Translations under genes and position numbers: made by a program
In this document: in pieces, positions 6,342 through 16,219 of the stretch
How the letters are laid out: every line of letters begins with the position of its first letter
How positions within the stretch are numbered: position 1 is the stretch's first letter
Notes under the pieces: model-generated
What the model was told of the DNA's origin: nothing
The model's database searches: none
The model's input: the letters and a program-made list of their open reading frames with translations, nothing else
IMG/VR virus record: IMGVR_UViG_2537562231_000027
Length of the DNA stretch: 16,219 nt
Reading direction: 5' to 3' (one strand)
Origin: a virus
Lineage: Duplodnaviria; Heunggongvirae; Uroviricota; Caudoviricetes

Positions 6342-6561
6342 AGCCACCTCCCAGGCGTTTAAACATTTTTCCGGACTGAAACGCCACTAGTGGGTAACTG
6401 ATGGTGTAGTTACGCCCCAGTAATTCACACACAACTTTCTGGCTTTCGGTGCTGACCAGGCAAACCCGCAGAACGCGACCGTCGCTGGTGGCGAACCACT
6501 GCCCCACACGGGGGCAACGGTTGTGTCGGTGATACAGAGAATTAACGAGGCGGCGAATCAT
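6328..6561 (-). CDS. Hypothetical protein (77 aa)
   Basis: ATG at 6561 with SD GGGAGGTG 6 nt upstream; ATGA overlap with the upstream gene's stop; 3' end overlaps the initiator start by 14 nt. Confidence 0.55.
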   Translation of the reverse strand: MIRRLVNSLYHRHNRCPRVGQWFATSDGRVLRVCLVSTESQKVVCELLGRNYTISYPLVAFQSGKMFKRLGGGYASV

Positions 6562-6920
6562 GGGCGCACCTCCCATTGATTACAGCGGAAAGCTGTATGA
6601 TTCAGGCTGGTTTCAGCTTCATGGAATGCCTCAATGCAGCTCTCGTAGTACCGCATTGTGCGCAGACTTAACCCAAGCTGAAGCATCATCAGGCCATCAA
6701 GAGTGATGTAATAACCACGCAGGGAGTCACCGTAGATGTGATAAGTACCCGGTATGAAATTGCAGGTAAAAAACTCGCGTGAGCAGTTCAGATACTCGAT
6801 TTTGTCAACGATGTTCTGGTGCATTCGCTTAAAGTGGCAGGCAACATGCAGGGAGAAAATAACGGCCTTGCCGTTGACAACTTCAATTTTCAGGTATGGG
6901 GAAGTTGGGACAGTAGCCAT
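6558..6920 (-). CDS. Hypothetical protein (120 aa), Cys/His-containing
   Basis: Internal ATG at 6920 with SD GGAGG 8 nt upstream; product MATVPTSPYLKIEVVNGKAVIFSLHVACHFKRMHQNIVDKIEYLNCS... The track ORF extends to an ATG at 7220 through GC-rich, low-complexity sequence with no RBS. Confidence 0.5.
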   Translation of the reverse strand: MATVPTSPYLKIEVVNGKAVIFSLHVACHFKRMHQNIVDKIEYLNCSREFFTCNFIPGTYHIYGDSLRGYYITLDGLMMLQLGLSLRTMRYYESCIEAFHEAETSLNHTAFRCNQWEVRP

Positions 6921-7085
6921 GATGGCAGCCTCCGTTGACTGTGGAAAACTTCCACCACCGGAGCTGCGAAACTCACTGGTGGCAGACTGAACAGGGTTCG
7001 CAGTACCGGCGTCAACGGAGACCGGCGAGCCTTTCGGCTCCCCTGCCCAGCCCACCATAATTCTGGCGTGCGTGAGCGCGGACGA

Positions 7086-7106
7086 TAAAAAAGACGCTGG
7101 CGCGTC
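7086..7106 (-). terminator. Candidate intrinsic terminator in the early-right operon (tR1-like)
   Basis: Minus-strand RNA reads GACGC-GCCA-GCGTC followed by TTTTTTAT. Short 5-bp GC stem. Confidence 0.4.
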
Positions 7107-7304
7107 ATATATCGCCGTTGACAATTCCGGGCTGCGACCCCCGGCACCCGCTTTATAAGGTGCGGAGACAGTGTAACGTCCCGAAATTGCAGAATCAATA
7201 TTTGGTCTTGAAATGATCATATAGCTGCTGATATCTTTAGAACTGTTCTTGGATGTTTCGGAGCCGTTTTATGCGAAACAGCTCCCCGTTATTGATGTTG
7301 AGTG

Positions 7305-8036: not shown

Positions 8037-8323
8037 TGTTTATCTCCTGCGTGTATTCCATCCGCTCTGTGTGGTGAACTTGGATTTAGGCTTTTGCGTA
8101 ACAAGTTAGGAATTCCATCTTCAGGGTGAGGATAAAGATCTGGCCTTAAGCCATGAGGCGTAACCTTCCATGCAACTACTTCACATACTCGTAAAACGAA
8201 ACGAGCAGGAATTGTGCTTTTTGAAAACCACTGATTCACCGCTTGCGGCGTCACACCAAGATTTCGCGCTATGGCATTTTGCGCAATTAATGCACGAAGT
8301 TTGTCGTAATCATTTCCTTCCAT
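8033..8323 (-). CDS. Cro-like HTH regulator (YdaS-type)
   Basis: LIAQNAIARNLGVTPQAVNQWF...LRPDLYP is HTH-like. Divergent from the cI-like gene across a 133-bp regulatory region. Confidence 0.7.
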   Translation of the reverse strand: MEGNDYDKLRALIAQNAIARNLGVTPQAVNQWFSKSTIPARFVLRVCEVVAWKVTPHGLRPDLYPHPEDGIPNLLRKSLNPSSPHRADGIHAGDKQ

Positions 8324-8456
8324 AACAAAGCACCAATATTAACTTTATAAATCAAGAATACATCAAGTTTAAATTAACATGCAAGTTGCAAAAGGATCGA
8401 ATACACTAAAATCAAGTAAAGATTTATCCTTGTAAAGAAACCCACAGGATTTGGTC
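8324..8456. promoter_or_regulatory. Divergent immunity control region (OR-like) between cro-like and cI-like genes
   Basis: AT-rich. Contains three direct ATCAAG motifs, the palindrome TGCAAGTTGCA and the near-palindrome CAAGTAAAGATTTATCCTTG. Individual promoters not confidently resolved. Confidence 0.5.
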
Positions 8457-9146
8457 ATGAAGAACGTCAAAAACACGGAAAATCGAATAGCCGCGATGCT
8501 GAAAGCAAAAGGATGGACTCAGGCTCAACTGGCCCGCAAGTTAGGTGTGAGTGCGCAATCAGTGCAGTACTGGACAACAGGAAAAACATTTCCACGGAGT
8601 GATAAGCTCGCGCATTTATCAGAGATTAGCGGTTATCCACAATCCTGGTTCTTAGGTGAAGACTCCTCACCAACCTTTTCTTCGCAAGAGAAACACCAGA
8701 CAAGAACAGATAGCGTCGTATTTAATGTCCTTGATGTTGAGTTTAGTTGCGGTGATGGAACTCATGTCCGTGGTGACTTGATAGATGTAGTGCGCTCAAT
8801 AGAACTTGATCCTGAATATGCCCGACGTCTTGTTGGAAATCGGGCATTCAAAAATATAGAAATAGGTAACGCCAGAGGAGACAGTATGGCTCCCACAATC
8901 TCACCTGGCGACCTTCTTTTTCTTGATAAGACAGTAACTTATTTTGATGGCGATGGTATTTATGCATTTTGTTTTGATGGAGAATGCTACGTGAAAAGGC
9001 TTCAAAAAATTGGAAGCAAAATCATGGTGTTATCTGATAACCCCAATTATCAACCATGGAGCATCGAAAAAGAGGGGTTAGCTCTGCTTTATATCCAGTC
9101 TAAAGTGATCTCATCAGTACCATTCAACATAAACAGATTTGGTTAG
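8457..9146 (+). CDS. Prophage repressor, cI/LexA-like (N-terminal HTH, C-terminal S24 peptidase)
   Basis: HTH WTQAQLARKLGVSAQSVQYW; S24 motifs GDSMAPTISPGDLLFLDK and YVKRLQK (Ser/Lys dyad). ATG at 8457; the track start at 8451 is a TTG. Confidence 0.85.
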   Translation: MKNVKNTENRIAAMLKAKGWTQAQLARKLGVSAQSVQYWTTGKTFPRSDKLAHLSEISGYPQSWFLGEDSSPTFSSQEKHQTRTDSVVFNVLDVEFSCGDGTHVRGDLIDVVRSIELDPEYARRLVGNRAFKNIEIGNARGDSMAPTISPGDLLFLDKTVTYFDGDGIYAFCFDGECYVKRLQKIGSKIMVLSDNPNYQPWSIEKEGLALLYIQSKVISSVPFNINRFG

Positions 9147-9158
9147 TCTTTGATTTTA

Positions 9159-9180
9159 ACGGGCTTTGCCCGTTTTTTTT
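9159..9180 (+). terminator. Rho-independent terminator after the repressor gene
   Basis: ACGGGC-TTT-GCCCGT followed by eight T residues, 13 nt after the cI-like stop. Confidence 0.7.
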
Positions 9181-9210
9181 CTGCCTGAAATATACGATAT
9201 CAATTTTTTC

Positions 9211-9239
9211 TTGACAGCCTGTTTCCCAAAACATAATAT
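9211..9239 (+). promoter_or_regulatory. Strong sigma70-type promoter (PL-equivalent or accessory-operon promoter)
   Basis: TTGACA (9211-9216), 17-bp spacer, TAATAT (9234-9239). Flanked by dyads ATCAATTTTTTCTTGAC and ATCAATTATAACTTGAT that share ATCAA/TTGAT half-sites with the OR-like region. Confidence 0.6.
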
Positions 9240-9292
9240 CGCACCATCAATTATAACTTGATTTGATTCAATTTAAAATTGTTGGCGGATAT

Positions 9293-9841
9293 ATGAAGAC
9301 ACTAAAAGCAACTCCAGAAACAACTAATTTTATCAACTGCGGCTGTGTTACGCTTAAGGGCTTAGAACTTGATTCCTTTGCATTAAATATTGCAAATTTG
9401 CTAAGTGCTGTACGCACATTCCATCTTCTGGATTGTGCTCGCTCAAAGGAACTGGGCATTGAGGTAATGGAATTTATCCATGAATATGCTCTATCTGCTG
9501 CTTCTCCTGCACAACAAAAACAATCCTTCCCTGAAAGCTGGCTGGTTAACCTTCGCACCCAACGCGAAGCCTGCGGCTTAACAACCGCCGAACTCGCCAG
9601 GCTGCTCGATCTCGATGAAGAAATTATCATCCAGTGGGAGAGCGGAGAGTATGAACCAACTATCAGTATGCTTATCCCACTGGCAAATATTCTTGGCTGC
9701 GATCCGATGTGCCTGTTAACTGGTGAGGTTACTCCTCCGGAGCAACCAAAAAGTGAGGAGCAGCAACACCATGACGCATCTCAACAAGTTTGCCCCTTAT
9801 CTCGCGAAGCTCTTCTGCGGAAGAACCAATACCAATGGTGA
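9293..9841 (+). CDS. Hypothetical protein with C-terminal XRE-type HTH domain (gene A)
   Basis: HTH GLTTAELARLLDLDEEIIIQWESGEYEPTISMLIPLANILGCDPMCLL; N-terminal about 90 aa unrecognised. ATG at 9293; the track start at 9263 is a TTG. Confidence 0.6.
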   Translation: MKTLKATPETTNFINCGCVTLKGLELDSFALNIANLLSAVRTFHLLDCARSKELGIEVMEFIHEYALSAASPAQQKQSFPESWLVNLRTQREACGLTTAELARLLDLDEEIIIQWESGEYEPTISMLIPLANILGCDPMCLLTGEVTPPEQPKSEEQQHHDASQQVCPLSREALLRKNQYQW

Positions 9842-9969
9842 CATAATCGCCGCTTCGCCCTTCAAGGTACATGCGAACATTTTTATCAATCATTGCGGAA
9901 ACAGTCTCAATATGAAAACACTTCTGAGACTCGCTATATAGCAGAACATATAAGTCAGCTGAGGAAGCC

Positions 9970-10335
9970 ATGAAAAAGTTCGAAAACATAACTGTTCTCC
10001 ATGTTGATGACTTTGATTATACAAACCCGGAACTTCTCCCGGAGGTTGTAAAGGCAATAGATGTTGCCGATATAGTGATTAGAGAAAAGAGAATTGTCAA
10101 AAACAGGCTCGCATGCACTTCAGGAGCAATGACAGAAACAACCTCACAGCAAGATAATTACGAAGGCATTTGTCTGGAGCCTGATTCATTTGCGGTAAAT
10201 GTTTATCATTTATTGCATGCAACACAGGTATTACATATGTCCAGTAATCACGAAACGAAAACACTCGGCAGCGAAATTCTGAGTTTTGCATGTGAGTATA
10301 CAAAAGCTGCTGCCGAAAAAGAATTAGCGCAATAA
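9970..10335 (+). CDS. Hypothetical protein (121 aa, gene B)
   Basis: ATG with SD GAGGAAG 5 nt upstream; no recognisable motifs. Confidence 0.6.
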   Translation: MKKFENITVLHVDDFDYTNPELLPEVVKAIDVADIVIREKRIVKNRLACTSGAMTETTSQQDNYEGICLEPDSFAVNVYHLLHATQVLHMSSNHETKTLGSEILSFACEYTKAAAEKELAQ

Positions 10336-10413
10336 CAACAAATATGCCCTGAACGTTTATTGCGGTTTTATCGCCGGGGATTGTTACAACCTTAATCCAC
10401 AGGAGGCTTTATT

Positions 10414-10527
10414 GTGACTTTTATAAAGAATATGGCATCACACAAGACCGCCTGCCTTATTGCACAATACGGTGAAAATTACATGCATATTGCCTACTTA
10501 TTTCTGCGTAAAGCATACGGGAGATAA
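10414..10527 (+). CDS. Candidate small ORF (37 aa), GTG start
   Basis: Perfect SD AGGAGG 7 nt upstream of GTG; stop lies 2 nt before the gene C ATG. Below the ORF-track size cutoff. Confidence 0.3.
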   Translation: MTFIKNMASHKTACLIAQYGENYMHIAYLFLRKAYGR

Positions 10528-10529
10528 TA

Positions 10530-10712
10530 ATGCATCAGAAAACAGCAGAACACGAGCAAACCAGAGTATTGCTGACCGTCAAAAACGGGAAAGTAATATT
10601 AATTCGTCATGTTCATGACGATGAACTTGTAGGAAGTCTTTCAACATTCCTGTTTATTGCAGAAAAGGCAGGATATGACGTTATTGCACCAGCTGATGAA
10701 GATGAGGAGTAA
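10530..10712 (+). CDS. Hypothetical small protein (60 aa, acidic C-terminus; gene C)
   Basis: SD GGGAGA 6 nt upstream; its 3' end contains the GAGGAG SD for the following IS1-disrupted gene. Confidence 0.55.
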   Translation: MHQKTAEHEQTRVLLTVKNGKVILIRHVHDDELVGSLSTFLFIAEKAGYDVIAPADEDEE

Positions 10713-10717
10713 ATATC

Positions 10718-10792
10718 ATGCAATACACTGAATTCCAGGCTGAAGCAACAGCCGGTAATGACTCCAACTTATTGATAGTGTTTTATGTTTAG
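10718..10792 (+). pseudogene. 5' fragment of IS1-interrupted gene D (12 native codons, then read-through into IS1)
   Basis: ATG at 10718 with SD GAGGAG 8 nt upstream; reading frame enters IS1 at 10754 and stops at 10790-10792. Deleting IS1 plus one target-duplication copy joins it in frame to the ORF at 11552. Confidence 0.6.
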
Positions 10793-11272
10793 ATAATGCC
10801 CGATGACTTTGTCATGCAGCTCCACCGATTTTGAGAACGACAGCGACTTCCGTCCCAGCCGTGCCAGGTGCTGCCTCAGATTCAGGTTATGCCGCTCAAT
10901 TCGCTGCGTATATCGCTTGCTGATTACGTGCAGCTTTCCCTTCAGGCGGGATTCATACAGCGGCCAGCCATCCGTCATCCATATCACCACGTCAAAGGGT
11001 GACAGCAGGCTCATAAGACGCCCCAGCGTCGCCATAGTGCGTTCACCGAATACGTGCGCAACAACCGTCTTCCGGAGCCTGTCATACGCGTAAAACAGCC
11101 AGCGCTGGCGCGATTTAGCCCCGACATAGCCCCACTGTTCGTCCATTTCCGCGCAGACGATGACGTCACTGCCCGGCTGTATGCGCGAGGTTACCGACTG
11201 CGGCCTGAGTTTTTTAAGTGACGTAAAATCGTGTTGAGGCCAACGCCCATAATGCGGGCGGTTGCCCGGCAT
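10769..11272 (-). CDS. insB: IS1 InsB reading frame (made as an InsAB' fusion by -1 frameshift)
   Basis: Canonical InsB-frame sequence ...[49 protein letters not shown]... Confidence 0.9.
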
Positions 11273-11466
11273 CCAACGCCATTCATGGCCATATCAATGA
11301 TTTTCTGGTGCGTACCGGGTTGAGAAGCGGTGTAAGTGAACTGCAGTTGCCATGTTTTACGGCAGTGAGAGCAGAGATAGCGCTGATGTCCGGCAGTGCT
11401 TTTGCCGTTACGCACCACCCCGTCAGTAGCTGAACAGGAGGGACAGCTGATAGAAACAGAAGCCAC
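11191..11466 (-). CDS. insA: IS1 InsA
   Basis: [43 protein letters not shown]... (91 aa); ends at the A6C frameshift motif. Confidence 0.9.
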
Positions 11467-11551
11467 TGGAGCACCTCAAAAACACCATCATACACTAAAT
11501 CAGTAAGTTGGCAGCATCACCGCAACAGCCACAGGTATACGAACTGGCAGT

Positions 11552-12067
11552 ATGACTATTGATTATCACGACGCAATCCGCCGTCTGGATGCAGGTGAAT
11601 TCGATCATCCTAATGTGAAAGGTTTGCAAATCCTTCAATGCCTCGCACAAGCCGACAATGCAGGATTACTGGGTAAACTCCCTGTTGAGATGAAGGTAGC
11701 CCAGTGGCGCTGGTTGTACGTGACGACATTCATCAACGAAGAAGAAAACAAGAATGGCACTATTGATATCCCAAACGAACACGGAACAACAGATCGCGCC
11801 GTAATATATAACGGGAAGCATGGGGTTATGACGATATATCCCGGCCCCATTCGGTTTGCCTTACAGCAGTATATTGAATGGAATTTAATTCAAAAATACG
11901 GCGAGGCAGAAGGAATGGGTAGAGCACTATTTCTTTATCAGAAAATGCTCATTACATACCCAGATAAAGGTTTCATTGTTTCAGACATGGGGCGAGAAGG
12001 GCTTGAACTCCTTCTGGATGAAATGATTAACGACCTGAATACTCATGGTATGCCAGAAGGCCAGTGA
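11552..12067 (+). CDS. 3' portion (171 codons) of IS1-interrupted hypothetical gene D
   Basis: Intact ORF from ATG 11552 with no SD of its own. In frame with the 10718 fragment once IS1 is removed; reconstructed product about 190 aa: MQYTEFQAEATATGIRTGSMTIDYHDAIRR... Confidence 0.6.
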   Translation: MTIDYHDAIRRLDAGEFDHPNVKGLQILQCLAQADNAGLLGKLPVEMKVAQWRWLYVTTFINEEENKNGTIDIPNEHGTTDRAVIYNGKHGVMTIYPGPIRFALQQYIEWNLIQKYGEAEGMGRALFLYQKMLITYPDKGFIVSDMGREGLELLLDEMINDLNTHGMPEGQ

Positions 12068-12263
12068 CACATTAAATATTAAGAGGAATATAATTCTTCC
12101 GTTTTTTACTAACCGTTTATATGAAAAGCAACCGTGACTTAAGCAGAGTAAAACTGCTTTTAATCCTTGCCACAGTACTGACAATAACAGAAATCATTAT
12201 TCTCTTTAGGTGATGCTGCCAACTTACTGATTTAGTGTATGATGGTGTTTTTGAGGTGCTCCA

Positions 12264-12539
12264 GTGGCTTCTGTTTCTATCAGCTGTCCCTCCTGTTCAG
12301 CTACTGACGGGGTGGTGCGTAACGGCAAAAGCACTGCCGGACATCAGCGCTATCTCTGCTCTCACTGCCGTAAAACATGGCAACTGCAGTTCACTTACAC
12401 CGCTTCTCAACCCGGTACGCACCAGAAAATCATTGATATGGCCATGAATGGCGTTGGATGCCGGGCAACCGCCCGCATTATGGGCGTTGGCCTCAACACG
12501 ATTTTCCGCCATTTAAAAAACTCAGGCCGCAGTCGGTAA
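12264..12539 (+). CDS. insA: IS1 InsA (variant)
   Basis: 91 aa; differs from copy 1 by L to F in ...[14 protein letters not shown]; A6C frameshift motif at 12515-12521. Confidence 0.9.
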
Positions 12540-12961
12540 CCTCGCGCATACAGCCGGGCAGTGACGTCATCGTCTGCGCGGAAATGGACGAACAGTGGGG
12601 CTACGTCGGTGCTAAATCACGTCAGCGCTGGCTGTTTTACGCGTATGACAGGATACGGAGGACAGTTGTGGCGCACGTTTTCGGTGAACGCACTCTGGCC
12701 ACACTGGAGCGTCTTCTGAGCCTGCTGTCGGCCTTTGAGGTCGTGGTATGGATGACGGATGGCTGGCCGCTGTATGAATCACGCCTGAAGGGAAAGCTGC
12801 ACGTTATCAGCAAGCGTTACACTCAGCGCATTGAGCGACATAATCTGAATCTGAGACAACATCTGGCAAGGCTGGGACGGAAGTCGCTGTCGTTCTCAAA
12901 ATCGGTGGAGCTGCATGACAAGGTCATCGGGCATTATCTGAACATAAAACACTATCAGTAA
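12458..12961 (+). CDS. insB: IS1 InsB reading frame (variant)
   Basis: InsB frame with substitutions relative to copy 1 (IRR versus [22 protein letters not shown] versus [19 protein letters not shown]). Confidence 0.9.
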
Positions 12962-13028
12962 GTTGGAGTCACTACCTTCTCTTTATTGCGCTGTCTGTCA
13001 GTTAAAAATATCGGGATACCACATACCA

Positions 13029-13217
13029 ATGAAACTGTATTTCACAATAGTAATTTTACTGGCAATTATCGCATGCATTTACGGATTACTCGTTCCGTTC
13101 CTTATATCCATGAAGGATACGATAGCAGTTATTTCTGGCTTTGCACTGGCGTTTCTGACCCCGCCCTGCATTTATGCCATTTACAAGGGTCTTTCTTTCA
13201 CTAAGGATAAAAAATGA
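13029..13217 (+). CDS. Small integral membrane protein (62 aa, two predicted TM helices)
   Basis: MKLYFTIVILLAIIACIYGLLVPFLISMKDTIAVISGFALAFLTPPCIYAIY...; stop overlaps the lipoprotein start (ATGA). The track ORF begins at a TTG inside IS1 and was trimmed. Confidence 0.55.
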   Translation: MKLYFTIVILLAIIACIYGLLVPFLISMKDTIAVISGFALAFLTPPCIYAIYKGLSFTKDKK

Positions 13218-14041
13218 AAAAATTTATTTTTGCTTTAGCCATTGTTCTGCCGACCATTGGCCTTGTCGGCTGCGATCGCGTTGAACCCGGTAATGTTGGC
13301 ATCAAAGTAAATAAACTGGGCGACGATAAAGGCGTCGGTGAGGTGGTCGGTGTTGGTCGCTACTGGACTGGCTGGAATACTGAAGTTTACATCTTCCCAA
13401 CCTTCAAACAAATGAAGACCTACGATGAGCCGTTCAGCTTCCAGATGAGTGACGGCACAACCATTGGCTATCACATCGGTGTTGCCTACAAAGTTGATCC
13501 ATCCAAAGTTACCACGGTGTTTCAGACCTACCGCAAAGGCGTGGATGACATTACCGACACTGACCTGCGCCAGAAGATCGCCGACGCACTCAATCGACTG
13601 GCCAGCAAAATGACCACTGACAAATTTATCGACGGCGGGAAGTCTGAACTACTGGATGCAGCTCTTAAAGACATTCAGGCAGAAATGACGCCCATAGGTA
13701 TTCAGGTAATGAGTCTCTCATATGTGGGTAAGCCGGAGTACCCGCCAACCGTTATCGACAGCATTAATGCCAAAGTCACGGCGAACCAGAAAACCCTGCA
13801 ACGCGAACAGGAAGTAAAACAGCGCGAAGCGGAAGCTAACATGTTGCGCGCGGAAGCTGCCGGACAGGCAGATGCGATTCGCACAAAAGCCCAGGCCGAG
13901 GCCGATGCTATTCGTTTACGCGGTGAAGCTCTGCGCCAGAACCCTGGCGTCATGGAGCTGGAAGCCATCAACAAGTGGAACGGTACTCTGCCGCAATACA
14001 TGACCAGCGGTGCCAATACACCATTTATCCAGATTAAATAA
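13214..14041 (+). CDS. SPFH/band-7 (prohibitin/HflC-like) domain lipoprotein
   Basis: Signal peptide with lipobox LVGC (Cys20) and Asp at +2, predicting inner-membrane retention. SPFH-like core and Ala/Glu-rich coiled-coil tail. SD AAGGA 7 nt upstream. Confidence 0.85.
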   Translation: MKKFIFALAIVLPTIGLVGCDRVEPGNVGIKVNKLGDDKGVGEVVGVGRYWTGWNTEVYIFPTFKQMKTYDEPFSFQMSDGTTIGYHIGVAYKVDPSKVTTVFQTYRKGVDDITDTDLRQKIADALNRLASKMTTDKFIDGGKSELLDAALKDIQAEMTPIGIQVMSLSYVGKPEYPPTVIDSINAKVTANQKTLQREQEVKQREAEANMLRAEAAGQADAIRTKAQAEADAIRLRGEALRQNPGVMELEAINKWNGTLPQYMTSGANTPFIQIK

Positions 14042-14069
14042 CTTACACGCCCGGCAAACCGCCGGGTTA

Positions 14070-14453
14070 ATGGAAAATCAGATGAACAACCAGAATACTC
14101 AACCGCAAATAATGAACTATGACCCGAATCTGACGTCGTGCGGACGCATGGCAAAACAAACCGTTCGATTAACTTTCGGACTATGGGAATACCGCGAAAC
14201 ATTCGAAGTTACTGTCGGCGGCAATCTGACCGGACTGGATGTTATCAATTGCGCTATTGAAAGCCTGTACGCAACGCTGCCTTATGAAGAAGTCCTGGAT
14301 GAGCGCACAGGGAAAACGGATATCATGGCCACCATTAATATTGGCGAACTGATATGCCAGGATGAAGACCTGTCCGGGGAACTCTGGCTTGCCGGGATGC
14401 TTATCTCAGCAGAAATTATCAGTATTGAACCCGCTACAAACATACGGCTCTGA
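14070..14453 (+). CDS. Hypothetical acidic protein (about 128 aa)
   Basis: Track ORF trimmed to the first ATG after the lipoprotein stop; start uncertain (ATG at 14082 also possible). A GC-rich hairpin lies just upstream. Confidence 0.55.
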   Translation: MENQMNNQNTQPQIMNYDPNLTSCGRMAKQTVRLTFGLWEYRETFEVTVGGNLTGLDVINCAIESLYATLPYEEVLDERTGKTDIMATINIGELICQDEDLSGELWLAGMLISAEIISIEPATNIRL

Positions 14454-14484
14454 AGTTCTCACTATTCAGAGAGCAGGAGAAAAA

Positions 14485-14601
14485 ATGTTCGCTCTGATTA
14501 ATCAGGGACAACTGTATACCGACAGTGCCGGTTACCCGGTAAAAATTGTTCGCTGCATAAACAACACCGTGTTGTACAGAAGATGTGAAGCGAATGTTTG
14601 A
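14485..14601 (+). CDS. Hypothetical small protein (38 aa)
   Basis: ATG with strong SD AGGAGA 5-6 nt upstream; track ORF trimmed from an upstream alternative start. Confidence 0.4.
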   Translation: MFALINQGQLYTDSAGYPVKIVRCINNTVLYRRCEANV

Positions 14602-14644
14602 AGTGTGGTGCCACTGCCGTGGATGAAAGTTTTATGAGGTTGGC

Positions 14645-14899
14645 ATGCAGACAATCATCTATCAGATAACCCCCAGCAAATGGTGTACGGAGAGAGTCCT
14701 CATTGCATCAACAGGGCTAAAGCCTGGCACCATCGAGCGAGCCAGAAGAAAGTCATGGATGCAGGGAAAAGAATACCGCCATTACGCTGTAGAAGGTGAT
14801 CCGGGGCATTACAGTGAATGCCTGTACAACATCGAAGAAATTATGCGATGGATCGAAAACCAGAAACAACCAGGTGCCAAAAATGCAAGTTCCGGTTAA
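14645..14899 (+). CDS. Excisionase-like protein (DUF1233-type putative Xis)
   Basis: ITPSKWCTERVLIASTGLKPGTIERARRKSWMQGKEYRHY resembles excisionase-like proteins found upstream of prophage integrases. SD GAGG 5 nt upstream. Confidence 0.7.
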   Translation: MQTIIYQITPSKWCTERVLIASTGLKPGTIERARRKSWMQGKEYRHYAVEGDPGHYSECLYNIEEIMRWIENQKQPGAKNASSG

Positions 14900-14932
14900 C
14901 CTGTTAATGCTCCTGGACGTCTGGGAGGTTTT

Positions 14933-16219
14933 ATGAGTAACGCATCATACCCGACAGGCGTTGAAAACCATGGAGGATCACTCCGTATATGGTTTCACTA
15001 TAATGGCAAACGTGTCAGAGAAAACCTCGGTGTTCCTGACACCGCCAAAAACCGGAAGATCGCTGGTGAGCTTCGCACTTCTGTTTGTTTTGCAATCAGA
15101 ATGGGGAGTTTCGACTACGCCGCGCAGTTCCCTAATTCCCCTAACCTGAAACACTTTGGTCTGGGAAAAAGAGAGATAACCGTTAAGGCACTTTCGGAAA
15201 AATGGTTGGACCTTAAGAAAATTGAGATTTGTGCGAATGCACTTAACCGTTACCAGTCAGTAATTAAAAACATGTTACCAATGTTAGGTGAAAAAAAACT
15301 GGTTTCATCCATAACAAAAGAGGATTTACTTTTCGTAAGGAGAGATTTGTTGACCGGTTACCAAAAGCTTTCTAATGGAAAGACTTCTTCCATAAAAGGG
15401 CGCTCAGTGGTCACGGTAAACTACTATATGACAACCATAGCTGGAATGTTTCAATTTGCAACAGATAATGGTTATACCTCAGGAAACCCATTTAACGGTC
15501 TGGCTCCCTTAAAAAAGTCCAAGGTAAAACCAGATCCTCTCACCCGTGACGAATTTATTCGTTTTATTGAGGCCTGCCGTCATCAACAAACAAAAAACCT
15601 GTGGATTCTCGCTGTATACACGGGTATTCGTCACGGGGAGTTGGTATCGCTGGCATGGGAAGATATAGACCTTAAAGCAAGGACTATAACCATCCGTAGA
15701 AATTATACAAAACTTGGCGAATTCACTCCACCAAAAACCGATGCTGGCACCGGAAGGACAATTCATCTGGTTCAACCAGCTATTGATGCTCTTAAAAGCC
15801 AGGCGGAAATGACCATGCTTGGAAAGCAACATTCTGTAGAGGTAAAGCAGAGGGAATATGGGAGAACAGCTGTGCATAAATGTACTTTTGTTTTTAGCCC
15901 TCAGGTAATAAAACAGCAGCAGTTGTCTGGACCTCACTACAAAGTTGACTCCATCAGGGAGTCATGGACAAGTATCTTAAAACGCGCAGGTCTGAGACAC
16001 AGAAAATCGTACCAATCCAGGCATACTTATGCATGCTGGTCACTTGCCGCTGGAGCTAATCCTAGTTTTATCGCAAGCCAGATGGGCCACACAAACGCAC
16101 AAATGGTATTCAATGTTTACGGAGCATGGATGAAAGACAACAATCACGAACAGATAGAACTCCTTAACAAAAGACTATCTGAAAGTGTCCCATGTATGCC
16201 CCATAAGAAAGTGGGGTAA
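14933..16219 (+). CDS. int: Tyrosine site-specific integrase (lambda Int family)
   Basis: C-terminal catalytic region includes LAVYTGIRHGELVSLAWEDIDL, HTYACWSLAAGANPSFIASQMGHTN and VYGAWM (catalytic Tyr); N-terminal arm-binding-like domain. Stop codon is the last triplet of the window. Confidence 0.9.
   Translation: MSNASYPTGVENHGGSLRIWFHYNGKRVRENLGVPDTAKNRKIAGELRTSVCFAIRMGSFDYAAQFPNSPNLKHFGLGKREITVKALSEKWLDLKKIEICANALNRYQSVIKNMLPMLGEKKLVSSITKEDLLFVRRDLLTGYQKLSNGKTSSIKGRSVVTVNYYMTTIAGMFQFATDNGYTSGNPFNGLAPLKKSKVKPDPLTRDEFIRFIEACRHQQTKNLWILAVYTGIRHGELVSLAWEDIDLKARTITIRRNYTKLGEFTPPKTDAGTGRTIHLVQPAIDALKSQAEMTMLGKQHSVEVKQREYGRTAVHKCTFVFSPQVIKQQQLSGPHYKVDSIRESWTSILKRAGLRHRKSYQSRHTYACWSLAAGANPSFIASQMGHTNAQMVFNVYGAWMKDNNHEQIELLNKRLSESVPCMPHKKVG

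Follow-up and report, generated by a model that had tools for sequence, protein, structure and literature searches.

We propose that the pair of IS1 elements in the 16,219 nucleotides of viral DNA analyzed here (the window; IMG/VR record IMGVR_UViG_2537562231_000027) almost certainly arose by two separate simple IS1 transpositions, copy 1 and then copy 2, into the early-left region of a lambdoid prophage. This region lies on the pL side of an E. coli prophage and is bordered by the immunity region and by xis-int. An IS1A-like element would have entered codon 12/13 of a phrog_1515 gene in reverse orientation, duplicating GCAACAGCC, and later, in a very close descendant, a mosaic IS1 would have inserted in the forward orientation 687 bp downstream, in front of the membrane/SPFH genes, where it would have duplicated TTCTCTTTA and clipped a 35-codon open reading frame (ORF). 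Both insertions would have followed the standard IS1 mechanism, in which the InsAB' transposase, made via a -1 frameshift at an A6C motif, acts on terminal inverted repeats of about 23 bp, and the 9-bp staggered target cut, once repaired, leaves a duplication. The sequence comparisons show where each element begins and ends, its duplication and its empty site, which of the two came first, which isoform each represents and that the spacer is uninverted, and we found nothing that contradicts the two-insertion account. The locus represents routine mobile-element damage of a known kind rather than a new type of element. It documents the stepwise erosion of a lambdoid prophage by IS1 and matters little beyond annotation.

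Two complete IS1 elements of different isoforms

Copy 2 is a 768-bp element on the forward strand (12209-12976) that begins at its left end with the IRL GGTGATGCTGCCAACTTACTGAT and is flanked on both sides by the exact 9-bp target-site duplication TTCTCTTTA (12200-12208 and 12977-12985). These boundaries and flanking repeats were already given in a preliminary description of this DNA, and they proved exact on re-inspection, both by reading the sequence and by a script check. The duplicated 9-mer occurs twice in the whole window, both times next to copy 2, against a chance expectation of 0.12 occurrences. Within the element, insA lies at 12264-12539 (+), the insB frame at 12458-12961 (+) and the A6C frameshift motif at 12515-12521 (+), and a simulated -1 shift gives a 232-residue InsAB' (12264-12961, +). 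This product matches the Pfam families Zn_ribbon_InsA (PF03811, 1.4e-19), HTH_Tnp_IS1 (PF12759, 6.4e-28) and DDE_Tnp_IS1 (PF03400, 2.1e-74), the last over the full length of the profile (positions 1-131 of 131). The Pfam scan was of the copy 2 protein, from which the InsAB' of copy 1 differs at 9 of 232 residues. The promoter scan also lists a promoter-like site at 12216-12243, in the IRL of copy 2.

Copy 1 is an IS1A-like element, also of 768 bp, on the reverse strand (10754-11521), with its IRR at 10754 and its IRL at 11521. It has its own exact 9-bp target-site duplication, GCAACAGCC, at 10745-10753 and 11522-11530. Its insA (11191-11466, -), insB frame (10769-11272, -) and A6C motif (11209-11215, -) are arranged as in copy 2, with AAAAAAC at IS position 307 in both copies and a 232-residue InsAB' from each after the simulated -1 shift. 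Counted from the alignment, 18 of the 23 positions of the IRL agree with the IRR in both elements. There are exactly four IS1 termini in the whole window, and a repeat finder picks up the two copies together as a single 782-nt inverted repeat with 94% complementarity. Between them lies a 687-bp spacer (11522-12208), the size given previously, which is native prophage DNA in its native orientation. Both copies are thus IS1 elements by their length, terminal repeats, A6C frames, transposase domains and 9-bp duplication. Neither shows any structural difference from the IS1 family as represented by the IS1A/IS1R and IS1F types of E. coli K-12, with which they share the 768-bp length, imperfect repeats of about 23 bp starting with GGT, insA and insB', the A6C site, the 232-residue InsAB' and the 9-bp target duplication.

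The two copies differ from each other at 39 of 768 nucleotides (94.9% identity), and all 39 differences fall at IS positions 298-764, leaving the first 297 nt on the IRL side identical. Since the copies are inverted with their IRL ends inward, these identical parts are the inner ends that adjoin the spacer. At the protein level, the preliminary description had InsA and InsB differing at several residues, which holds for InsAB', where the nine replacements are all conservative, and does not hold for InsA, where a single residue is changed (L81F). Silent changes therefore make up most of the 39 nucleotide differences, a pattern that speaks against sequencing error, the explanation that would have undermined the earlier reading, and points to two diverged lineages that are probably functional.

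The isoforms were compared site by site with the IS1A and IS1F copies of K-12. Copy 1 differs from K-12 IS1A at 4 of 768 nucleotides, and it is 100% identical in two genomes, and 99.9% identical in many, to copies annotated by PGAP as 'IS1-like element IS1A family transposase'. Copy 2 differs from K-12 IS1A at 41 and from K-12 IS1F at 44 of 768 nucleotides, and it is a mosaic that is IS1A-like at positions 1-297 and IS1F-like from about 396 to 764. Three differences at positions 298-304 fit neither parent. Compared with the copy in E. coli ATCC 8739 it shows no difference in 768 nucleotides, and it is 100% identical to IS1 elements that occupy numerous unrelated sites, on chromosomes as well as plasmids, across many E. 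coli genomes. That identical sequences sit at so many different sites, in genomes that can have up to 40 or more places with IS1, is an indirect hint of transposition activity. PGAP names the identical copies only 'IS1 family transposase' and annotates them with 'programmed frameshift'. The mosaic isoform is widespread and unchanged in E. coli. Hence the view that copy 2 is a different isoform rather than a local duplicate of copy 1 is borne out, as the one isoform occurs at many unrelated sites and the other is IS1A-like. Both isoforms are also found together in single E. coli genomes. Either element could therefore have transposed from a copy already resident in the genome, and the 'acquisition' spoken of earlier need not mean import.

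Empty sites and the origin of the pair

When both IS elements and one duplication of each are removed in silico, the remaining DNA forms a single collinear alignment of 4,308 bp at 99.5% identity to an IS-free reference, prophage L001 of E. coli STEC17-190. Two complete E. coli genomes, those of STEC17-190 and FHI_NMBU_10, contain the spacer at 100% identity, collinear and in the same orientation. At the empty sites, TTCTCTTTA and GCAACAGCC each occur once. Further loci were found by way of the truncated 171-residue product predicted by gene callers for the disrupted gene. Both IS1 copies are present in GCA_000184765.2 (L007, contig ADUM01000115.1), which matches the window at 100% over 6.5 kb. 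The window corresponds to the first ~16.2 kb of this contig, starting at about position 3, with each window position equal to the record position minus 2. The decisive locus is L008 (GCA_036927635.1), which contains copy 1 only and a single TTCTCTTTA, with 100% identity over 8552-12208 and 12977-15844. It therefore preserves the copy-2 target site intact within flanks of 6.5 kb that are 100% identical to the window, and its copy 1 is already identical to that of the window. Two further contigs begin inside copy 1, lack copy 2 and are 100% identical over the shared parts (GCA_003651345.1, L010; Logan ERR4899398, L011). Neither copy is present in GCA_012698185.1 (L006) or Logan SRR6396369 (L009), which share 99.9% identity with the window downstream of the copy-1 site; their identity drops to 94% immediately upstream of that site and to ~79% in the immunity region.

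As L008 has copy 1 without copy 2 and a single TTCTCTTTA, copy 1 inserted first, and the insertions are separate and sequential. Copy 2 would then have arrived later, in a lineage that has accumulated zero substitutions in the shared flanks. The states with no, one and two IS elements are all represented in public assemblies, which makes this an unusually well documented case, and the comparison with related prophages that was proposed earlier supports independent insertions through both the IS-free (L001) and the one-IS (L008) relatives. The population-level support for both insertions comes from draft assemblies only. A megablast search with the region, and with the spacer plus IS ends, found neither insertion in complete E. 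coli RefSeq genomes, and an exact-junction scan for both IS-flank junctions gave 0 matches in contigs of species representatives.

Two IS1 copies that bracket a short segment call to mind the composite transposons Tn9, which reportedly has direct IS1 copies, and Tn1681, which is said to have inverted IS1 copies around a heat-stable toxin gene. The layout here is inverted as in Tn1681 and both outer ends are IRR, so a unit of 2,223 bp (10754-12976) that arrived whole might be envisaged. We regard such an origin as vanishingly improbable and consider it refuted. Unlike Tn9 and Tn1681, the pair has no common outer duplication, its left outer flank being GCAACAGCC and its right one TTCTCTTTA, with a separate duplication for each IS; the supposed passenger is not foreign but native prophage DNA, collinear with and 100% identical to that of IS-free genomes; and an intermediate with one IS exists in L008. 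Taken together these three features argue that the pair was assembled in place, in agreement with the preliminary description, which had also concluded that the intervening segment is not inverted. The latter follows from the orientation of the spacer in the two complete genomes, and L008 agrees.

The distribution of the differences between the copies raises a separate possibility, that local gene conversion or a double inversion made the inner 297 bp identical and that the pair has already recombined. All 39 differences do lie in the outer ~470 bp with the identical parts facing the spacer, and the two copies share 127T and 262C, both of which are missing from K-12 IS1A. The mosaic structure of copy 2 is nevertheless present at many unrelated sites, including the ATCC 8739 copy, which shows that the pattern predates the insertion. 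In addition, copy 1 is within about one base in 768 (99.9%) of IS1A-family copies in many genomes while differing from K-12 IS1A at four positions, and thus at least one of 127T and 262C must be widespread. Finally, L008 has a copy 1 identical to that of the window without having copy 2. Hence the identical 297 bp are a property of the isoforms, and local gene conversion, which is rejected, is to our minds very improbable. Much the same low probability attaches to copy 2, or its position, being an artefact of draft assembly in which a repeat was wrongly placed. The source is a draft, IS1 is a classic contig breaker, the L010 and L011 contigs indeed break inside copy 1, and copy 2 was found in a single assembly, the source L007, the contig of which is on record for 2 samples. 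A misplaced repeat, however, would not leave an exact 9-bp duplication where the empty site has the sequence once, and copy 2 is a complete 768-bp element of a genuine isoform unlike copy 1. Two independent transpositions are thus the reading with which we proceed.

The inverted pair was earlier said to be capable of driving inversion or deletion of the intervening segment. The longest uninterrupted identity between the copies is the 297 bp at their inner ends, which is enough for RecA-dependent inversion of the spacer, and so inversion is possible in principle. Deletion is another matter, as homologous recombination between inverted repeats leads to inversion and deletion needs intramolecular transposition of IS1; that part of the proposal falls away. 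An inversion would just flip a gene fragment and swap the duplications. Comparison of the window with IS-free relatives revealed no sign of a past inversion of the spacer, and the pair is a potential but unremarkable inversion substrate.

The reading frame clipped by copy 2

Copy 2 lies in the 184-nt gap between the phrog_1515 gene and the gene for a 62-residue membrane protein, and in doing so it cuts a candidate small ORF that starts with ATG at 12121. In its present state this ORF has 30 codons, ending with ...ILFR, and a TGA inside the IRL (12121-12213, +). Without the IS it continues at 12986-13005 and is reconstructed as 35 residues, MKSNRDLSRVKLLLILATVLTITEIIILFIALSVS. The interruption of a short ORF encoding a hydrophobic 35-residue peptide had been described correctly, and the question is whether that ORF is a gene.

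The predicted peptide resembles TisB, Ldr and ShoB in having a short basic N-terminus followed by ~24 hydrophobic residues. Unlike these it has no family match, Shine-Dalgarno sequence, nearby Rfam antisense RNA or sign of purifying selection. Specifically, the sequence before the ORF contains no Shine-Dalgarno; Pfam, PHROG and PADLOC returned no family match; the ORF is left unannotated in the records examined, namely phiP27, one Stx2a phage and RefSeq genomes; its two commonest alleles do not occur in a collection of 15 billion proteins; and no cognate antisense or regulatory RNA lies near it among the curated Rfam families. A tblastn comparison of the peptide with phages gave no match and missed even the copy in phiP27, an outcome that we put down to low-complexity filtering and to which we give no weight. 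The frame is open in 48 of 49 related loci, which represent 24 alleles, with ATG changed to ATA in the remaining one. Polymorphism density is 0.21 within the ORF vs 0.20 in the non-coding flanks, and the variants comprise 7 synonymous changes at about 26 sites and 16 nonsynonymous changes at about 79 sites, or a pN/pS of about 0.75. The ORF is absent from 27 of the 79 IMG/VR SPFH loci.

The case for the 35-codon ORF as a gene is therefore weak and, judged from the sequence comparisons, is not favoured. It seems unlikely that it encodes a meaningful protein, that is, a real and so far unannotated small membrane peptide of phiP27-like and Stx-phage-like prophages. If it did, the peptide might be toxic, or might be an accessory of the module formed by the 62-residue and SPFH membrane proteins, and selection, rather than neutral damage by an IS, would then account for the truncation of the ORF or for the module having been uncoupled from pL.

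Prophage genes around the insertions

The gene hit by copy 1 begins with ATG at 10718, with a GAGGAG Shine-Dalgarno sequence 8 nt upstream, and is split after codon 12. Its 5' fragment of 12 codons lies at 10718-10753 (+), and codons 13-190 with the stop lie at 11531-12067 (+), a 3' part of 537 bp that makes up most of the 687-bp spacer. The reconstructed gene encodes a 190-residue protein of phrog_1515 (E = 6e-92), the function of which is unknown, and an intact phrog_1515 gene is annotated in STEC17-190. We infer that copy 1 knocked out this gene, which here is to be annotated as a pseudogene. A hairpin with a T-run that follows its stop codon (about 12080-12106) was considered as a terminator and rejected (-4.6 kcal/mol, z near 0). 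Over the same spot the arrangement GTGACA-19 nt-TATAAT can be seen by eye; it is absent from the promoter scan list.

Downstream of copy 2 are the gene for the 62-residue two-helix membrane protein (phrog_1130, 13029-13217, +), with its ATG at 13029, and the overlapping gene for an SPFH/Band-7 lipoprotein (phrog_200, 13214-14041, +). PADLOC gave no defense-system match for the SPFH protein, the 62-residue protein, the 35-codon ORF or phrog_1515. The 62-residue and SPFH module travels as a cassette among IMG/VR relatives (L015-L094, compared upstream of locus position 2001), and 27 of the 79 IMG/VR SPFH loci have unrelated genes upstream of the module and a strong AGGAGG ribosome-binding site. 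In the lineage of the window no obvious Shine-Dalgarno sequence precedes the 62-residue gene, although the 24 nt immediately before its ATG hardly vary.

Upstream, the immunity region includes a cI-like S24 repressor gene (8451-9146), directly followed by a terminator-like hairpin (9158-9174). The promoter scan lists a strong near-consensus promoter-like site, TTGACA-17-TAATAT, at 9211-9239, after which comes a run of forward-strand genes that ends in xis and int (14933-16219). This site is a candidate for the early-left promoter of the operon broken by both IS1 copies.

Copy 2 has the same orientation as the downstream genes and copy 1 the opposite one. As IS1 is classically polar in both orientations, it is reasonable to expect reduced pL-driven transcription of the membrane/SPFH genes and xis-int, and both copies are likely to be polar on transcription toward them. 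Such polarity would fit the decay of a prophage in an IS1-rich lineage. The xis-int and membrane/SPFH genes may thereby lose early-left transcription, which could help to make the prophage a permanent part of the chromosome.

A sigma-70-like site, GTTACA-17-CATAAT (9 of 12 matches; 12816-12844, +), lies in the IS1F-like part of copy 2 and reads toward the membrane/SPFH genes; its equivalent in copy 1 is not listed by the promoter scan. As the region has, in all, just as many promoter-like sites as chance predicts, this site is a lead only.

Some features of the wider prophage can be added. The immunity region (8092-9706, with the cro-like gene, the cI-like gene and the next HTH gene) is ~79% identical to that of the IS-free relatives (L001, 3873-5489; L006 and L009), and from there rightward to int the identity is 99-100%, a case of lambdoid mosaicism with a breakpoint near 10358. 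The last nucleotide of the window, 16219, is also that of the integrase stop codon, which leaves the attachment site and the host flank outside the window; the equivalent integrase in STEC17-190 adjoins mlrA (yehV). At gathering thresholds, the curated families of Rfam have no match from 7163 to the end of the window. Above their gathering scores are matches to C4 antisense RNA (6975-7062, -, 78.8 bits) and to the Hfq-binding RNA isrK (7087-7163, -, 58.7 bits), which adjoin each other within a 220-residue ORF (6558-7220) that aligns to a STEC17-190 gene annotated as 'ash family'. This pair looks like a P1/P7-style antisense module for immunity or antirepressor control in a lambdoid prophage.
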